Shown here: positions 1,346 to 57,089 of the stretch, one piece after another
Layout: each line of letters opens with the position of its first letter
Numbering within the stretch: position 1 is the stretch's first letter
From: a virus
Direction: 5' to 3' (one strand)
DNA: 64,000 nt
Virus record (IMG/VR): IMGVR_UViG_3300032284_002783
Location: 12,658 to 76,657 of that record
The notes under the pieces: generated by a model
Database searches by the model: none
What the model was told of the DNA's origin: nothing
The model's input: the letters and a program-made list of their open reading frames with translations, nothing else
Made by a program: the position numbers and the translations under genes

Positions 1346-1844
1346 AACCAACCTTCAAATTGATTTGCCAAGACTGGTTAAAGATTTATCTCGCTATATT
1401 GATGTCTTCGACCAATTTAATCAATTATCTATTGTATATGATGAAAATAGATTGGTAGAAAATATCGAACCACATTATGTTGCTATCGGCAAAAGTCCAC
1501 CAGACATTGATCAATGGAATCTTAACAAAATTTGTCCTTTATTTGCAAATAGTTATTTTGCGGAAATATTTGATCTAGTTCCATATAAGAAGCAACGTGC
1601 TAGAATAATGAGAATGGCACCTCGTAGCACATACAGTATGCATGTTGATTCATATAAACGTTTGCATTGGGCTTTAATAACAGATCCTAGCTGTCATTTA
1701 ACTTTTCAAAATAATGAACAATTTTTTGGTTGGCATATTCCGGCCAACGGTTTTGCATATCTTGTTGATACCAGAAAGATGCACTCTGCAGTAAATCCCT
1801 GGGATCAATATAGATATCATTTTGTTATTGATATAAAGGATTAA
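1329..1844 (+). CDS. Asp/Asn beta-hydroxylase-like Fe(II) oxygenase (double-stranded beta-helix fold)
   Basis: RARIMRM..HVD..RLH...DTRKMHSAVN..RYHFV pattern (HxD...H triad). Confidence 0.65.
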   Translation: MPVIFKTNLQIDLPRLVKDLSRYIDVFDQFNQLSIVYDENRLVENIEPHYVAIGKSPPDIDQWNLNKICPLFANSYFAEIFDLVPYKKQRARIMRMAPRSTYSMHVDSYKRLHWALITDPSCHLTFQNNEQFFGWHIPANGFAYLVDTRKMHSAVNPWDQYRYHFVIDIKD

Positions 1845-1846
1845 AC

Positions 1847-1993
1847 ATGAAACTACTAGTATTTCTTATATTATTGGCAATTTTGTTTGTTCTGTTTCCA
1901 GCTAAAGTTTTAGCAGCTATAATTTTAATTAGTTCTGGATTTTTATCGCTGGCTATTTTGGTATTTGTGCTAATTGCTTGTCTTCTTGGATAA
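1847..1993 (+). CDS. Small hydrophobic membrane protein (48 aa)
   Basis: ATG 1847 directly after the upstream stop, TAA 1991-1993; MKLLVFLILLAILFVLFPAKVLAAIILISSGFLSLAILVFVLIACLLG. Confidence 0.6.
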   Translation: MKLLVFLILLAILFVLFPAKVLAAIILISSGFLSLAILVFVLIACLLG

Positions 1994-1994
1994 T

Positions 1995-2272
1995 AAAAAA
2001 AATGTGCATGTGGTGATTTTGCATCTTCGGTTCAGTTGCGAACGATAGACATCAAACAGCTTGCCATGCTTACTTCTATCTGGCCATTATTTCAGACCTG
2101 CGCTTTTTCCCAATCACCTCAGGGAAGAACCATAAGACATGAGCTAGACTCTATACATGCTGTGTGTATGGTTTTCCAATGCTCATCCGGCTTCTTCCTT
2201 ACCGCGCTGGATTTTAACATGCACTATGATTTCAGCGTCTATGTTCACAGCAACATGTCAACTTACGTCATG
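1995..2272 (-). ncRNA. Unassigned ~270-nt structured, pseudoknotted RNA
   Basis: Minus-strand TAGACT-17-TAGTAT promoter (~2277-2305); long-range helices 2035-2052/2235-2254, 2004-2011/2217-2224, 2012-2018/2112-2118, 2123-2129/2192-2198, 2139-2144/2181-2186; ends in a U-tract. Confidence 0.55.
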
Positions 2273-2341
2273 CTTTATACTAGCAAATGTTAACTGATCA
2301 GTCTAGCGGATTTGTTTGAAATAATTATGTCAAAATATTAA

Positions 2342-2407
2342 TAAATAATAATGCAGTTCGCGGAATTGGCGTTCCCAACTGCTCTATAACTCAGGAGAAT
2401 TACAGCA
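2342..2407 (+). promoter_or_regulatory. Late promoter (TAAATA), hairpin leader and SD of the GIY-YIG gene
   Basis: TAAATA, then hairpin GCAGTT..GGAA-ttggcg-TTCC..AACTGC (2353-2382), then AGGAG before ATG 2408. Confidence 0.5.
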
Positions 2408-2968
2408 ATGTCTAATATTTATTATGTATATGCATATATAAGAACTAAAAACTCAGCAACTGCTAACGCAGGTACACCATATTATATTGGTAAAGGTAAA
2501 AATCGTCGTGCATGGGAAAAGCATATAGTACCACGGCCAATAGACAAAAATTATATAGTTATTGTGGAATCAAATTTAACTGAAGTTGGCGCACTTGCAT
2601 TAGAGCGCAGATTAATAAAATGGTATGGCGGGAAAGATTTAGAAACAGGTATATTACTTAATAGGACAGATGGCGGCGATGGCGGATCTAATATTGTTTA
2701 TGAAAGGACATTAGAGCATAAACAGAATCTGTCAAATGCATTGAAAGGCAAACCAAAATCTAATGAAATGAAAAAGAAATTGTCCATTACAAACACAGGA
2801 CGAAAACTATCAGAATCTACGAGGAAGAAAATATCAGAGAATAACAAAAACAGGGTATTATCTGACGAAGTATTAGCTAAGCTTAAAATGCCAAGATCTG
2901 ATGATATAAAAAGAAAAATATCAGAGTCGGTTAAAAACTCTTATCGTTTAAGAAGATTAAAACACTGA
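2408..2968 (+). CDS. Free-standing GIY-YIG homing endonuclease with NUMOD3-like repeats
   Basis: YYVYAY...PYYIGKGK..R motif, [17 protein letters not shown], basic repeats ([32 protein letters not shown]). Confidence 0.85.
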
Positions 2969-3872
2969 GATTACATGTTTTACATTAGTACCTTGAGGAT
3001 TATTATGAGTCTTGCGAACTCGTTTCCCTCAACATCCACTGTCCCCTCATATTGTGAGACAGTCTACTAACAATGTCGCCTTTTTTAAGGTCAGGCAGTA
3101 GACCTTTCATGCAGTGCTACTCTACAACTTTTGCACCGTTAGCCTTGCGAGCTATTCGAGAGCGCTAACCCTCTACGACACATCTGTTACAGACCAACTC
3201 CACCTTGCGAGTTTTGTTGGGCTTGGTTCTCTTACGAGCCAAGCATTAGACATCTTTCACACTACACAGGGCCAGGCTTTGCGTTTTTGTAATCGAAAGT
3301 TGGACTTGAACCAACATACGACTGCTTGGAATGCAGTTGCCTAAACCATTCGGCTATATCGTTTGAACCTACTGTGATGTGCTGGCCCTGTTGCTGCATA
3401 CCTTGTTAGATACACAATACAACACACCACCTGTATTTCGTCTTGCAGACTACTTTACCGTTTACCTGGACACTGTCTAGCCTTACGAGCTAGCCAATCC
3501 CCTCAAAACTGCCAACCGCCCTTGGCTGCAAAGCCTCGAACTTGTTTGACTATCCATTATCTATCAGCATTCTGTTGGTTTGCGTGCAAAGGTGATACTT
3601 GCGGTATCTTACTCCTCACCGATTGGCTCTGGAGCACATCCTTTCGGACCTTTACCCAACTGTCCTGCTTACCACCCCTTTCGGATGGCTCCTTTCGGAG
3701 CAGACTGGACTTGCATAGTGGACCCTATTGCTAGGTGCTGGTAGGTAGGCCTTCCAGCTTTGGGTCAGTTGCCTGACTTATTCCATTAATGGCGCTATGC
3801 CGCCAATGCTTATTTTACATTTTATAGAACAAAAACTTTGCACATTCGCTTGCGCTTGTGTGCGCCGTCTAT
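2958..3872 (-). ncRNA. Large ornate RNA, probably GOLLD family (~915 nt)
   Basis: No credible ORF; GC-richer than flanks; about ten GNRA-capped hairpins on the minus strand (GAAA, GCAA, GUAA loops); 3' end ...AUAAUCC...GUAAUCUCAG as I recall for GOLLD; embedded tRNA; strong upstream promoter. Confidence 0.7.
3291..3363 (-). tRNA. Degenerate tRNA-Gly(UCC) embedded in the GOLLD-like RNA
   Basis: D arm TAGCCGAATGGTTTAGGC; anticodon arm ACTGC-ATTCCAA-GCAGT; T arm GTTGG-TTCAAGT-CCAAC; acceptor stem with 2 mismatches; no encoded CCA. Confidence 0.65.
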
Positions 3873-3878
3873 GTAGCT

Positions 3879-3907
3879 AATATACAGAGCTTGACCAGCG
3901 CTGTCAA
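3879..3907 (-). promoter_or_regulatory. Sigma70-type promoter of the GOLLD-like RNA
   Basis: TTGACA (3907-3902), 17 nt, TATATT (3884-3879); A-rich upstream region. Confidence 0.8.
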
Positions 3908-3967
3908 CAGCATTTTTTGATTTTTTTTAATTATTGCTGTCTTTTTTAAAAAATAGTAAAAACAGCT

Positions 3968-4498
3968 ATGAAAACTAAGTGGGAAATAAGCCTTGCACAA
4001 GGTGAATGGTTTGAGGATAATGTCGCATTGCCCTGGTTGTATGCAAATTTTCCACAATGGTGGATTACGGATTGCAGGCTAGAGAAAAAGTCACAATTTG
4101 GTGGTCCAAAAATGCGTACTGCAAATCAAGTATTAACACTGCCCGATTTTAGATTGGATAATGCAGAAACCAATCAAACTATTTGGATTGATGCCAAATA
4201 TAAGACTAAGTCTTATAAGCTAGATGATTATCCGGGCGATTACTTTACTACAATAGACCCAAGAAGCTATCAAGAATACATGGATTTTATGAAAGTTTGG
4301 CCTAACTCAGATTTTTTGATTTTGTTTGGAAAACGAACTACTAAACTACTTTATATAATGAATCTAAAAACAGCCAAGCCTGTTATGCATTGGTATAATA
4401 ATGAGCATGTTACAATGGGTAGAAATAGTGTTCCATGTTTTTCAGAGCGGTATCTAGACCCGGTTGGATCTTGGAATCCAACCCTAATGCCATACTAA
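3968..4498 (+). CDS. PD-(D/E)XK nuclease-like protein
   Basis: GE..E N-terminal helix, LPDF...WIDAKYK motif. Confidence 0.55.
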   Translation: MKTKWEISLAQGEWFEDNVALPWLYANFPQWWITDCRLEKKSQFGGPKMRTANQVLTLPDFRLDNAETNQTIWIDAKYKTKSYKLDDYPGDYFTTIDPRSYQEYMDFMKVWPNSDFLILFGKRTTKLLYIMNLKTAKPVMHWYNNEHVTMGRNSVPCFSERYLDPVGSWNPTLMPY

Positions 4499-24072: not shown

Positions 24073-24861
24073 ATGGATAGGTTTTCATTACCAACACAAG
24101 AACAAGTAGAATTAATTATTGGCAGAGCACAGACTGTTGGGACACCAATACGAGCTGTTGCAGATTCTTTAAGAATTGGACCAACGATTGCTATTCAAAA
24201 TCTATCAACTGTACAAACAGATAGTGCCGTACAGGCCGCTGTAGCCGCAATGCAAATTCAATTAGATCGCGATTGGCAAGCTGCTTGGGGAACTACAGCA
24301 ACACTGATGTTTTACTCACGCAATCAAAGCATTCCTTCGACATATTGGCCAATTTATATTCTTGATACTACCGATACCAGCGGAGCATTAGGTTATCATG
24401 ATGAGCTAGTCGGCGGTCGTCCATATGGTCGTGTATTTGCCAAAACTGCAGCACAATACGGTTATAGTTGGACTGTAACATTAAGTCATGAATTGCTGGA
24501 AATGATGGCCGATCCTTATGTTAACCTTACAGTCTTTAATCAAACAACTTCAAAGGCAGGTCGCTTATATGCTTATGAAGTAGGGGATCCTGTTGAAGCA
24601 GATATGTATGGATACAGAATCAACAACATTTTAGTAAGTGACTTTGTGTTTCCTAGTTGGTTTGATACTTATGCAACAGCTAGAGGCACACGTTACGATC
24701 AAACAAATCATGTGTCAGCACCATTTCAGATCTTAACTGGAGGATATATGAGTGTGTTTAATGTTACCAATGGATCAGGTTGGACAATGATCACACACAA
24801 TAATATCGAAACAGCAGAGCCTCCTCTAAGCGATAGAAATCGTTGGCTTAGAGACGATTAA
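24073..24861 (+). CDS. Putative zinc metallopeptidase
   Basis: ALGYHD, SHELLEMMADP, YEVGDPVE, SDFVFPSWF; TAAATA and AGGAG upstream. Confidence 0.55.
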   Translation: MDRFSLPTQEQVELIIGRAQTVGTPIRAVADSLRIGPTIAIQNLSTVQTDSAVQAAVAAMQIQLDRDWQAAWGTTATLMFYSRNQSIPSTYWPIYILDTTDTSGALGYHDELVGGRPYGRVFAKTAAQYGYSWTVTLSHELLEMMADPYVNLTVFNQTTSKAGRLYAYEVGDPVEADMYGYRINNILVSDFVFPSWFDTYATARGTRYDQTNHVSAPFQILTGGYMSVFNVTNGSGWTMITHNNIETAEPPLSDRNRWLRDD

Positions 24862-26744
24862 AGGCTAATCCAGTCTTTACGATCATCAGCTCTATCAGCA
24901 TTGAATATAAGATCCAATGCATCTGATAGATTTCCATCGTCTACAATAGGTATTAATTTTGGACTAGCTAGACTGTGAATCCAGTCGGCTTCTTCTAAAC
25001 TACCCAATCCCTTAGCTCGTGTTGGCTTTGGACAGTTCTTCCAATCATCTGGATTATACTGTTGATAATCATCTGCATACCAATAAAACCTCTTCTTGCC
25101 TTTTTCTTGTATGATAAATGGTGTTTGAAACGCATAGAAAAATGCTGGAAGCTTAGGGTCAAATAACTCAGGCCAATGCAAATAAAAGAAATTTATAAGC
25201 AAGGCCGTGATGTTAGCACCGTCTGGATCTTGGTCAGCTGCTAGATATACTTTACCATAGCGTAAATCTTCTCTAACTGCAGTCTGACCTAATCCTACGC
25301 CTATTGCAGCCATCAAGTCTGTAATTATTTGATTTTCAATGATAATTTTTGCACTTTCACCCCGAACATTAAGAATCTTACCTCGTAATGGTAGTGCTCC
25401 ATATATTTCGGGATCTCTCACAGCGCTAACCATTGTTTTAGCACTATCACCTTCTGTAATAAGCAAAATACATTTAGTTCTGTCTTTACCGTTAGCATCC
25501 AGTAATTTTGGAACCTTTGCACGTAATAGCTTACGATTAGCCTTTGCTAAATCAGCATCCTCTTTTTTCTGCGTACGAGCCGCACAACGTTCATAAATTG
25601 CATTAACCCAAGATTTATGCTGTTTAATGATCGTTTTAAAGGTGTTTTCATTCTCTAGTGTTTGCTTAATCCATTTATCAACATCATCATTGATAAGTCG
25701 AGTTTTACTTTGACTATCAAAGTTAGGAGCATGCATAAAGGTCACATTATAAATTAACAACCCTTCGCTTATGTCAGACCTATTTGGTGTTAGTCCGCGT
25801 CTCTTATTTTCACGTTCTAATGCCTTTAGCATACCACCAAAGAATAATCTCTTGAATGTATCTATATGCTGACCTCCATTGAATGCAGGAATATCATTAA
25901 CTGTACTGTGTATATATTCACCGTCTTTGGCAAAACCGGGTACTAGATAGTAGTCACTTTTAAACTTGTCGCCGCTAATGTTTATAGTAGCAACGTCGCA
26001 ATCACTAAAAAGTGTTTTTTCAATATTTTTACCAACAGTAACACGTTCACCATTGAATAGAAACTTGATGCGTGGATGATTAGCGGCAACTTCAAACACT
26101 CTAGCCTTAATAAAATCTAATGGAATAAGTGCCTTCTTGAATACAGTTGAACTTAGGGTGAACTTAACATAAGTGCCTGTTTTGCCATTACTGCTGCTGG
26201 TAATCTTAGGTTTACCAATTTCTAGCTCAGGTATAAGTTCTGATCCTTCATGAAATGACTGTTGAAATCTCTTACCATCTCTCCTAATATCGACTGAGAA
26301 CTCAGTAGAGCAGCTTACAACGACACTAGCTCCTATACCATTGGTACCTCTGACTTCTTCTCTGGTACCAAAGTTACGTCCCGCTCGCGCCTGTGTTAAG
26401 GCTAGTGTTGCCTTGTGCATTCGTTCATTTTCGTCGTAGTCAATTGGAATACCGCGGCCGTCATCGCTAACTGAAAATGTTAATGTAGATGGATCATAAG
26501 TGATTTCTATTTTACTGCCGTGATTATGACCAACAACCTCGTCTAGCGCATTGTCGAACACTTCTCTAAAAGCACAATATGCAGCAGGTGTCCAAGAACT
26601 ATCAACTGCTTCAAGCTTTGATCCGGTCCAGTTTACGATAGTTTGGTTGTGAACATTTCTACTGCCCAAATACATTTCTGTGCGATTTCGATGGTGCTGC
26701 CAGTCAGTTAGTTTAATGATTTCGTTTGATATTTTTTCAGCCAT
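24858..26744 (-). CDS. Type II topoisomerase, GyrB/gp39+60-like subunit
   Basis: EVFDNALDE, DDGRGIP, GTNGIG (GHKL ATPase); EGDSA, PLRGKILNV, DQDPDG (TOPRIM); KGLGSL. Confidence 0.95.
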   Translation of the reverse strand: MAEKISNEIIKLTDWQHHRNRTEMYLGSRNVHNQTIVNWTGSKLEAVDSSWTPAAYCAFREVFDNALDEVVGHNHGSKIEITYDPSTLTFSVSDDGRGIPIDYDENERMHKATLALTQARAGRNFGTREEVRGTNGIGASVVVSCSTEFSVDIRRDGKRFQQSFHEGSELIPELEIGKPKITSSSNGKTGTYVKFTLSSTVFKKALIPLDFIKARVFEVAANHPRIKFLFNGERVTVGKNIEKTLFSDCDVATINISGDKFKSDYYLVPGFAKDGEYIHSTVNDIPAFNGGQHIDTFKRLFFGGMLKALERENKRRGLTPNRSDISEGLLIYNVTFMHAPNFDSQSKTRLINDDVDKWIKQTLENENTFKTIIKQHKSWVNAIYERCAARTQKKEDADLAKANRKLLRAKVPKLLDANGKDRTKCILLITEGDSAKTMVSAVRDPEIYGALPLRGKILNVRGESAKIIIENQIITDLMAAIGVGLGQTAVREDLRYGKVYLAADQDPDGANITALLINFFYLHWPELFDPKLPAFFYAFQTPFIIQEKGKKRFYWYADDYQQYNPDDWKNCPKPTRAKGLGSLEEADWIHSLASPKLIPIVDDGNLSDALDLIFNADRADDRKDWISL

Positions 26745-27252: not shown

Positions 27253-27562
27253 GATCTTTTCTGTTTCTAAGAAGACCGATCTCAATCTTAGGCTACTGCC
27301 TGAAGAAACGGAGCATTATCATTTGCTGCGTTTATTGTTTTTGATCTATAAAGCGATCATCCTGCTATCTACTTCAATACCTTCAGCGCCAATCGATCCC
27401 AGTTATCCCCCATCAAAAGCACAGCCCGCTTTGCCTTTTCAGCTTATCCAAAAAACGACCTAGCATGTTTGCAACCATGTTATCCAGGCGTCTGTGCTTG
27501 TGGTGGAGGATTGGGGAGTTGAACCCCAGTCTTGATCACCTATATATTGCTATCAACAACAG
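27253..27562 (-). ncRNA. ssrA: Circularly permuted (two-piece) tmRNA
   Basis: Acceptor piece with T arm ending ATCCTCCACCA (27501) precedes the GGGGGAT coding piece (27411); G3.U70 pair; tag reading frame 27326-27288 ANDNAPFLQAVA*; TATAAATA promoter at 27569-27576. Confidence 0.93.
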
Positions 27563-27601
27563 CTAGTATATTTATAACACAGATTTTTTAAAAATCAAGA
27601 C

Positions 27602-56540: not shown

Positions 56541-56717
56541 CTTATTTCTCCTAATACAACATTTATTTGTAATTGTTTTTGCTGGGTTTTACAAGACACG
56601 AAATAAACTACATAGTCTACCAAAAACACTGTGCATCATAAATACATTGTCCAAATAGTTGGACTTATGCGGCCCCCACCGCGTAGCCCCAGAACGGCAT
56701 AAAAAAGGAGAAAACAA

Positions 56718-57089
56718 ATGGGACGCCCAATTAATTCTCGCTATATCGGAAACACCAGTACTAGCGGACAACAAATTACTGCAACAGCTTATTTTGGTGA
56801 CGATAGTCAACCACGTACTGCTTACATTTCTGCTCAAAAAGGAACCAATATATACGACATGGTATCAGTAGATGGTTTACACAGCGGAATGGTTCAGTTA
56901 ACCGAAGGAAACATAGCTCTAGCACCGGGACAGGCCAATATCACTGTTACAAACTATGATAACATTGTTGAGTTTGCTGAAAAAATTACCAATCGTATGG
57001 TATATACCTGGGAAGGCAATGAATACGAATGGATTTTTAGTAACGAAGCTATTACAACAAGTAACCAAGCTCAAATACAGAGCAGCTAA
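56718..57089 (+). CDS. Probable late/virion protein
   Basis: Late promoter, structured leader, AAGGAG SD; MGRPIN start; I..QKG..Y motif. Confidence 0.65.
   Translation: MGRPINSRYIGNTSTSGQQITATAYFGDDSQPRTAYISAQKGTNIYDMVSVDGLHSGMVQLTEGNIALAPGQANITVTNYDNIVEFAEKITNRMVYTWEGNEYEWIFSNEAITTSNQAQIQSS

Follow-up and report, generated by a model that had tools for sequence, protein, structure and literature searches.

The locus considered here raises the question of what kind of element occupies positions 1995-2305 of the window, i.e., of the whole stretch of 64,000 nt of virus DNA that was analysed. The stretch lies between a short membrane-peptide gene and the gene of the GOLLD RNA, and an earlier note, made from the letters alone, had described it as a compact, ribozyme-like or scaffold RNA of about 270 nt with two long-range pseudoknots, its own minus-strand promoter and a terminal U-tract, possibly acting as a partner of GOLLD.

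The GOLLD locus and its neighbourhood

The source record is an IMG/VR virus record of 76.7 kb, with an estimated completeness of 18%, so that the complete genome would be that of a jumbo phage of roughly 400 kb. Parts of the region 1800-3950 are present in 20 runs from 12 studies, where they belong to relatives in freshwater and aquatic metagenomes. All protein genes neighbouring the element are situated on the plus strand. On its left side, genes for a fatty-acid desaturase (Pfam, E 8e-19), an Asp/Asn beta-hydroxylase-like protein and a hydrophobic peptide of 48 aa are found within 581-1993. The last of these, the membrane-peptide gene (1847-1993), is convergent with the element, and its stop codon directly abuts a run of eight A on the plus strand, corresponding to U8 on the minus strand (1995-2002). 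This run is followed by a conserved non-coding core (2003-2287, minus strand), which contains the three complementarities described below and exhibits a GC content of 0.43, compared to around 0.33 in its surroundings. The element holds no iterons or other notable repeats, and no paralogue of it exists within the window or the source contig. Elsewhere in the window, Rfam models detect a permuted (two-piece) tmRNA (82.6 bits, 27288-27563, minus strand) and a freshwater-2 RNA motif (55.5 bits, 56649-56720, plus strand).

The GOLLD gene comprises around 940 nt in total (2962-3907) and lies on the minus strand. Its first hairpin, linker and conserved 3' domain (2962-3430) match the Rfam model RF02032 over the complete model positions 1-416 (202.6 bits, E 1e-55), and a tRNA-Gly(UCC) is situated inside the linker (3289-3364; ARAGORN, and 51 bits in Rfam). 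The 5' domain and the promoter (3431-3907) were assigned by reading the sequence; the 5' domain folds with an MFE z of -3.3, and RNA-library contigs extend over 3004-3849. The promoter, TTGACA-17-TATATT at about 3907-3879, is near-consensus (11 of 12 positions). Since no terminator-like site was detected downstream of GOLLD, read-through from this promoter is plausible. GOLLD RNA assembles as a 14-mer nanocage. Occasional tRNAs within the GOLLD linker are also described in the literature, in agreement with the embedded tRNA-Gly(UCC). The general layout, with a variable 5' domain, a linker and a universally conserved 3' domain, was established by cryo-EM, and GOLLD genes are reported to be "often near tRNA islands" (bioRxiv 10.1101/2024.12.08.627333).

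Between the element and GOLLD, a cassette of opposite orientation is situated (about 2288-2968). Its 5' part (2288-2407, plus strand) consists of an AT-rich spacer, a hairpin at 2353-2382 and an AGGAG ribosome-binding site, followed by a free-standing homing endonuclease gene (2408-2968, plus strand; 186 aa) with a GIY-YIG-like N-terminus and a NUMOD3 motif (phrog_314, E 1e-14), the stop codon of which overlaps the last bases of the GOLLD Rfam match. The contig of a relative in run X2 leaves the window at 2287 and enters it again at 3051, and thus lacks the endonuclease gene, whereas contigs of run X5 contain it. Because some relatives' contigs are without the cassette and others are with it, it is a polymorphic insertion between element and GOLLD, placed exactly at the GOLLD 3' end, and hence a live polymorphism in lake phage populations. 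The hairpin (6+5 bp, -12.9 kcal/mol) stands just upstream of the endonuclease ribosome-binding site, and the segment 2341-2386 recurs in a different sequence context in a second record of run X2; it may be a regulatory part travelling with this endonuclease family.

Conservation, linkage and RNA-library cover

Logan contigs from four runs, two of DNA and two of RNA, were placed on 1500-4300 with a likeness threshold of 80%. Relatives in these four runs cover positions 2028-2287 of the core with 6-10% differences (i.e., around 90-94% identity; 17/197, 17/164, 6/100, 8/98 and 8/122 in the single contigs), whereas, in these runs, the differences amount to 3-6% in GOLLD and to 13-16% in the neighbouring gene at 3968-4498. 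Third codon positions account for 11 of the 15 differences listed for this gene, and therefore roughly 29% of its third positions differ. Compared to these near-neutral sites, the element would be about three times more conserved if the contigs come from the same relatives, an estimate to be read with the provisos that the compared contigs may represent different strains and that the 80% likeness filter biases it. The variant sites are situated at 2067, 2070, 2074, 2078, 2080 and 2086, accompanied by two homopolymer indels.

Concerning the linkage to GOLLD, one DNA contig of run X2 (record 1; 1434 nt) contains 2091-2287, followed after 168 nt by 3051-3947, in one orientation throughout. Because around 89 of the 168 bases must constitute the GOLLD 3' end, the element is at most about 80 nt away from GOLLD in this phage, so that it would ancestrally have been situated within around 80 nt of the GOLLD 3' end. 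The physical linkage of the stretch to GOLLD is thus supported by a relative, whereas a special complementarity between the two is not supported: Full-length duplex folding of element and GOLLD gave values no better than those of shuffled sequences, and the longest contiguous pairing amounts to 12 bp, compared to 12.4 bp expected.

In the lake metatranscriptome run X4, a contig of 179 nt with a depth of 7.6 was found over 2082-2245 (such contigs give no strand). In the RNA runs X3 and X4, GOLLD itself reaches depths in the hundreds to thousands over 3004-3849, and the summed k-mer depth in lake metatranscriptomes peaks at around 9000 at 3380-3473. The depth of the element contig is only around 0.1-2% of the GOLLD depth in X4, which counts against an interpretation as a GOLLD trailer. 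One RNA contig in X3 possesses just a loose end of 95 nt beyond 3051, reaching to within a few bases of the 3' end of the GOLLD model, while the DNA contig continues. That it stops there suggests, as a weak hint, that the abundant mature GOLLD ends at this point without the element, and that the element is a separate or trailing RNA at a much lower level than GOLLD. The flanking protein genes (1500-1969 and 3850-4300) are covered in the DNA runs and are without contig cover in X3 and X4, an absence which carries no evidential weight concerning DNA carry-over. Within GOLLD, RNA contigs of X3 and X4 (depths 18.8 and 1035) join 3446 to 3737 and thereby skip 290 nt of the 5' domain; with some uncertainty, given a flank of 45 nt and the 80% likeness threshold, this junction could stem from co-occurring phages in which the 5' domain of GOLLD is shorter or of another kind.

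The base composition of the core on the minus strand (A.316, C.179, G.255, U.251; 57% purines) closely resembles that of the GOLLD 3' domain (A.319, C.188, G.261, U.231), and the element ranks 31st among 6374 windows in its likeness to GOLLD composition. A GOLLD-like composition is, however, common to ordinary minus-strand protein genes (e.g., 24858-26744), and because of this it provides just a hint at the minus strand as the sense strand.

This non-coding, conserved stretch, physically linked to GOLLD and homologous to a contig of an RNA library, might best be interpreted as a non-coding element specific to this lineage, which forms part of the GOLLD locus, is under sequence constraint and belongs to the GOLLD transcription unit as its minus-strand downstream part, rather than as an independent, compact, pseudoknotted RNA gene. 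We prefer this interpretation tentatively and give it close to, but not quite, an even chance. Minus-strand sense and co-transcription with GOLLD are presumed here, as is any function of the element. Read-through from the promoter at about 3907-3879 would reach the element, and the product would be a companion or trailer RNA of around 300 nt and low abundance, running up to the U8 tract that faces the convergent gene. The element holds the slot taken by tRNA arrays at other GOLLD loci, and in this phage the mobile GIY-YIG cassette (around 2288-2968) has come to separate it from GOLLD. The element may serve as a processed stable RNA, or as a 3' flank needed for the formation or stability of the GOLLD 3' end. 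Counting against a trailer, read-through in the present phage must cross around 670 nt of an endonuclease cassette that lies antisense to it. The lack of a thermodynamic structure signal and of homologues at other GOLLD loci (see below) likewise counts against the preferred interpretation. A bolder version, which sees in the element a new functional RNA, specific to this lineage, that acts jointly with GOLLD (e.g., as cargo, cofactor, or assembly or processing partner of the nanocage), is made from the GOLLD promoter, is then released, and replaces the tRNAs in this freshwater group of jumbo phages, appears unlikely to us.

For comparison, further GOLLD loci were considered, 18 from IMG/VR and those of the phages Phosso and MD18 from GenBank. 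Behind none of these 20 other GOLLD genes, the closest of them at 66-67% identity included, was a homologue of the element found. Five full IMG/VR records contained no homologue either (one identity of 17 nt in record G005 was taken as chance), and among GenBank phages blastn matched GOLLD but not the element. Searches of viral contigs with three flanking or overlapping translations revealed no related locus, and exact searches of viral contigs with a 21-mer from the element and with a 21-mer from the GOLLD 5' domain gave no match. Two candidates were rejected: The metagenome locus L004 shares nothing with the window by blastn, the matched peptide being inside an unrelated ORF, and one genome-contig match was judged to be spurious. 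What trails GOLLD elsewhere are tRNAs, which follow on the same strand within 55-265 nt in four of the six other loci examined by Rfam scan; in the Phaeobacter phage MD18, a tRNA-Arg is annotated on the same strand as the short GOLLD match (blastn) and close beside it.

The position in the slot of these tRNA arrays would also be expected of a functionless relic, be it a decayed tRNA array, a decayed gene or a foreign fragment, or of a DNA-level spacer between convergent units, the similarity among relatives then being due to recent ancestry or to recombination at a homing site and not to selection. We consider such an origin rather doubtful, although several observations agree with it: The element shows no structure signal and no family match, its RNA is scarce relative to GOLLD, and its homologues are seen only in near relatives (at least 83% identity); moreover, homing endonucleases are able to co-convert flanking DNA, as in T4 SegB (PMC2330249). 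Against it stands the divergence of 6-10%, which is well under that at third positions of the neighbouring gene in apparently the same relatives, a comparison based on few contigs that passed a likeness filter. The conservation is, furthermore, seen between alleles with and without the endonuclease, which co-conversion leaves unexplained, and the GC content is ten points above the local background. No tRNA remnant was detected at E<=10: ARAGORN finds only the tRNA-Gly inside GOLLD, and RF00005 has no match in 1960-2420.

Predicted fold, expression signals and coding potential

The interpretation put forward in the earlier note, an independent ribozyme-like or scaffold RNA gene of around 270 nt that is transcribed from its own sigma70-type promoter (2305-2277), folds with two long-range pseudoknots and terminates at U8, is in our view decidedly unlikely. 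Several of the underlying observations are correct. The stretch is indeed conserved, does not encode a protein and is represented in an RNA library; its lack of a match to known RNA families is confirmed, with nothing at E<=10 in Rfam beyond noise even when 461 nt were searched alone; and its intactness despite the cassette that separates it from GOLLD would be easier to understand if it had an expression of its own. The 8-bp helix (2004-2011/2217-2224) and the 7-bp helix (2012-2018/2112-2118) are both perfect, the closing helix (2035-2052/2235-2254) is complementary, if interrupted (5+4+6 bp), and perfect stems of at least 7 bp are mildly enriched (6 observed, 2.7 expected from dinucleotide shuffles, p about 0.05).

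The inferred architecture, however, is not supported. Only one perfect stem of at least 8 bp is present, compared to 0.67 expected, and 48% of dinucleotide shuffles contain at least one, such that the 8-bp helix does not exceed chance. In the minus-strand ensemble, the 8-bp and 7-bp helices reach a probability of 0.25-0.38. Because these two are nested with each other, they constitute pseudoknots only relative to the closing helix, and this helix has a probability of essentially zero on either strand because 2044-2049 prefers the local partner 2075-2080. The MFE z of the element lies between +0.36 and +0.87 across tests (around +0.8 on the minus and +0.5 on the plus strand, and +0.4 for the core at 2003-2287, relative to dinucleotide shuffles), whereas the same test yields -1.9 for the GOLLD 3' domain and the value given above for its 5' domain (minus strand), with coding controls at +0.7. 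On neither strand, therefore, is the folding energy clearly below that of shuffled sequences, as would be expected of a structured RNA. At position 2067, although the minus-strand MFE fold shows it as paired, all four bases occur among the relatives. Thermodynamic, statistical and ensemble tests all remain at chance level, and they lend no support to the compact, doubly pseudoknotted, ribozyme-like fold. Self-cleaving ribozymes (twister, hammerhead, hatchet, pistol, HDV-like) as well as RNase P and group I/II introns gave no family match at E<=10 on either strand; the GOLLD model RF02032 does not score in 1960-2420 at the same threshold, and neither blastn nor nhmmer finds similarity of the element to GOLLD.

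Similar considerations apply to the expression signals. The motif TAGACT-17-TAGTAT is present on the minus strand at 2305-2277, but it matches the consensus at 8 of 12 positions only, and such sites occur about as often as expected by chance (3 in 521 nt, 2.7 expected); a scan for consensus promoters did not list it. Because the match of the relative's contig breaks off at 2287, the "-35" box (2305-2300) is part of the cassette and not of the conserved element, and the relative without the endonuclease possesses another sequence at this place. The U8 run at 2002-1995 is likewise real, and it may represent the end of a minus-strand transcript, but it is not a canonical intrinsic terminator, since no stable hairpin precedes it; in the relative behind P0001, it is 2 nt shorter. 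No terminator-like site was called in 1995-2305. Neither a promoter better than chance nor a GC-rich hairpin with a following U-run, the marks of an independent sigma70 unit, was thus found in the element.

If the plus strand were the sense strand, in keeping with the orientation of all neighbouring protein genes, the element might constitute the 3' UTR or terminator of the upstream operon (desaturase, hydroxylase-like protein and 48-aa peptide), or a leader for what follows downstream on the plus strand. On this strand, the hairpin at 2151-2171, which precedes a UUUU stretch, has a slightly higher stability (-12.1 kcal/mol, z -1.7), and the changes found in X2 at 2067 (T>G), 2078 (A>G) and 2080 (C>T) extend a hairpin at 2063-2069/2078-2084 only in the plus sense, by way of G-U pairs; this argument is, however, drawn from a single fragment of 30 nt in one relative. 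The plus strand is rich in pyrimidines (57%) with a G content of 0.18, unlike structured RNAs and phage sense strands, and its MFE z of +0.5 as well as the lack of a called terminator-like site in 1995-2305 speak against such a role, which we regard as very improbable.

Concerning the coding potential, the plus-strand frame is open over 98 codons (1997-2293) within a stretch of 300 nt, and three of the six variant sites fall on third codon positions. The ORF at 2036-2293 (plus strand, 85 aa, TTG start) nevertheless has a codon score of -0.07, compared to 0.33 +/- 0.08 in 85-codon pieces of the phage's own long genes (around 4.8 SD below), and a GC3 of 0.49 compared to 0.27 in phage genes. No ribosome-binding site precedes its TTG, and neither Pfam nor PHROG contains a match. 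Among 5.8 billion proteins, the single match is P0001, a JGI "hypothetical protein" of 58 aa, and a search of the same 5.8 billion at shorter lengths revealed no further homologue. P0001 tracks the translation of the window over about 1965-2142 while switching among three frames, ending at the TGA at 2140-2142; its two frame changes imply an A-run shorter by 2 nt and a deletion of 1 nt near 2103-2110. Because P0001 jumps between window frames, this relative has kept the nucleotides but not the frame. The match also places the gene of the 48-aa peptide to the left of the stretch in this relative. The minus-strand frames each contain 7-11 stops, and a rescue by stop-codon reassignment is ruled out by the presence of all three stop types in every frame. 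That the stretch is non-coding is thus confirmed by codon usage, by frameshifts in one relative and by the lack of a protein family, and a small protein gene, be it the ORF at 2036-2293 or the one at 2157-2297 (46 aa), is hardly credible.

Comparison with known systems

Although the cage structure of GOLLD has been solved, to our knowledge no function, partner or mechanism of 3'-end formation is known for this RNA. A conserved, transcribed element other than a tRNA right behind GOLLD in one lineage could thus point to a partner RNA or to a processing signal, and the natural presence or absence of the endonuclease between the two provides a ready-made test of whether adjacency is needed. As it stands, the element can be classed among the orphan conserved non-coding stretches that large phage genomes commonly contain.

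Compared to GOLLD, the element shares the locus, the strand composition, a similar conservation among relatives and the presence in lake RNA libraries. It differs in its position beyond 2962, the end of the full-length Rfam match, in lacking a stable predicted fold and complementarity beyond chance, in being around 50-1000 times less deep in the RNA run, and in being separated from GOLLD by a mobile cassette in the present phage. With the tRNA arrays found behind GOLLD elsewhere, it has the slot and the orientation in common, as well as a GC content above that of the genome and the absence of an ORF, whereas it exhibits neither a detectable tRNA or tRNA-like fold nor similarity to the sequences that trail GOLLD in the 20 loci.

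Besides its tRNAs, the tRNA region of phage T4 specifies two small stable RNAs, which are transcribed together with the tRNAs and for which no function is known. This region is unrelated in sequence to the present locus, and the stable RNAs of T4 are shorter and experimentally observed, whereas an RNA product of the element is so far presumed. In both cases, however, non-tRNA RNAs (in the case of the element, a putative one) whose role is not understood would be part of the cluster. In T4, the GIY-YIG homing endonuclease SegB is situated in the tRNA region, and co-conversion of flanking DNA by this enzyme has been demonstrated (PMC2330249). Equally to SegB, the endonuclease between the element and GOLLD is a free-standing enzyme of the GIY-YIG type that resides inside a cluster of stable-RNA genes and is polymorphic among related phages.
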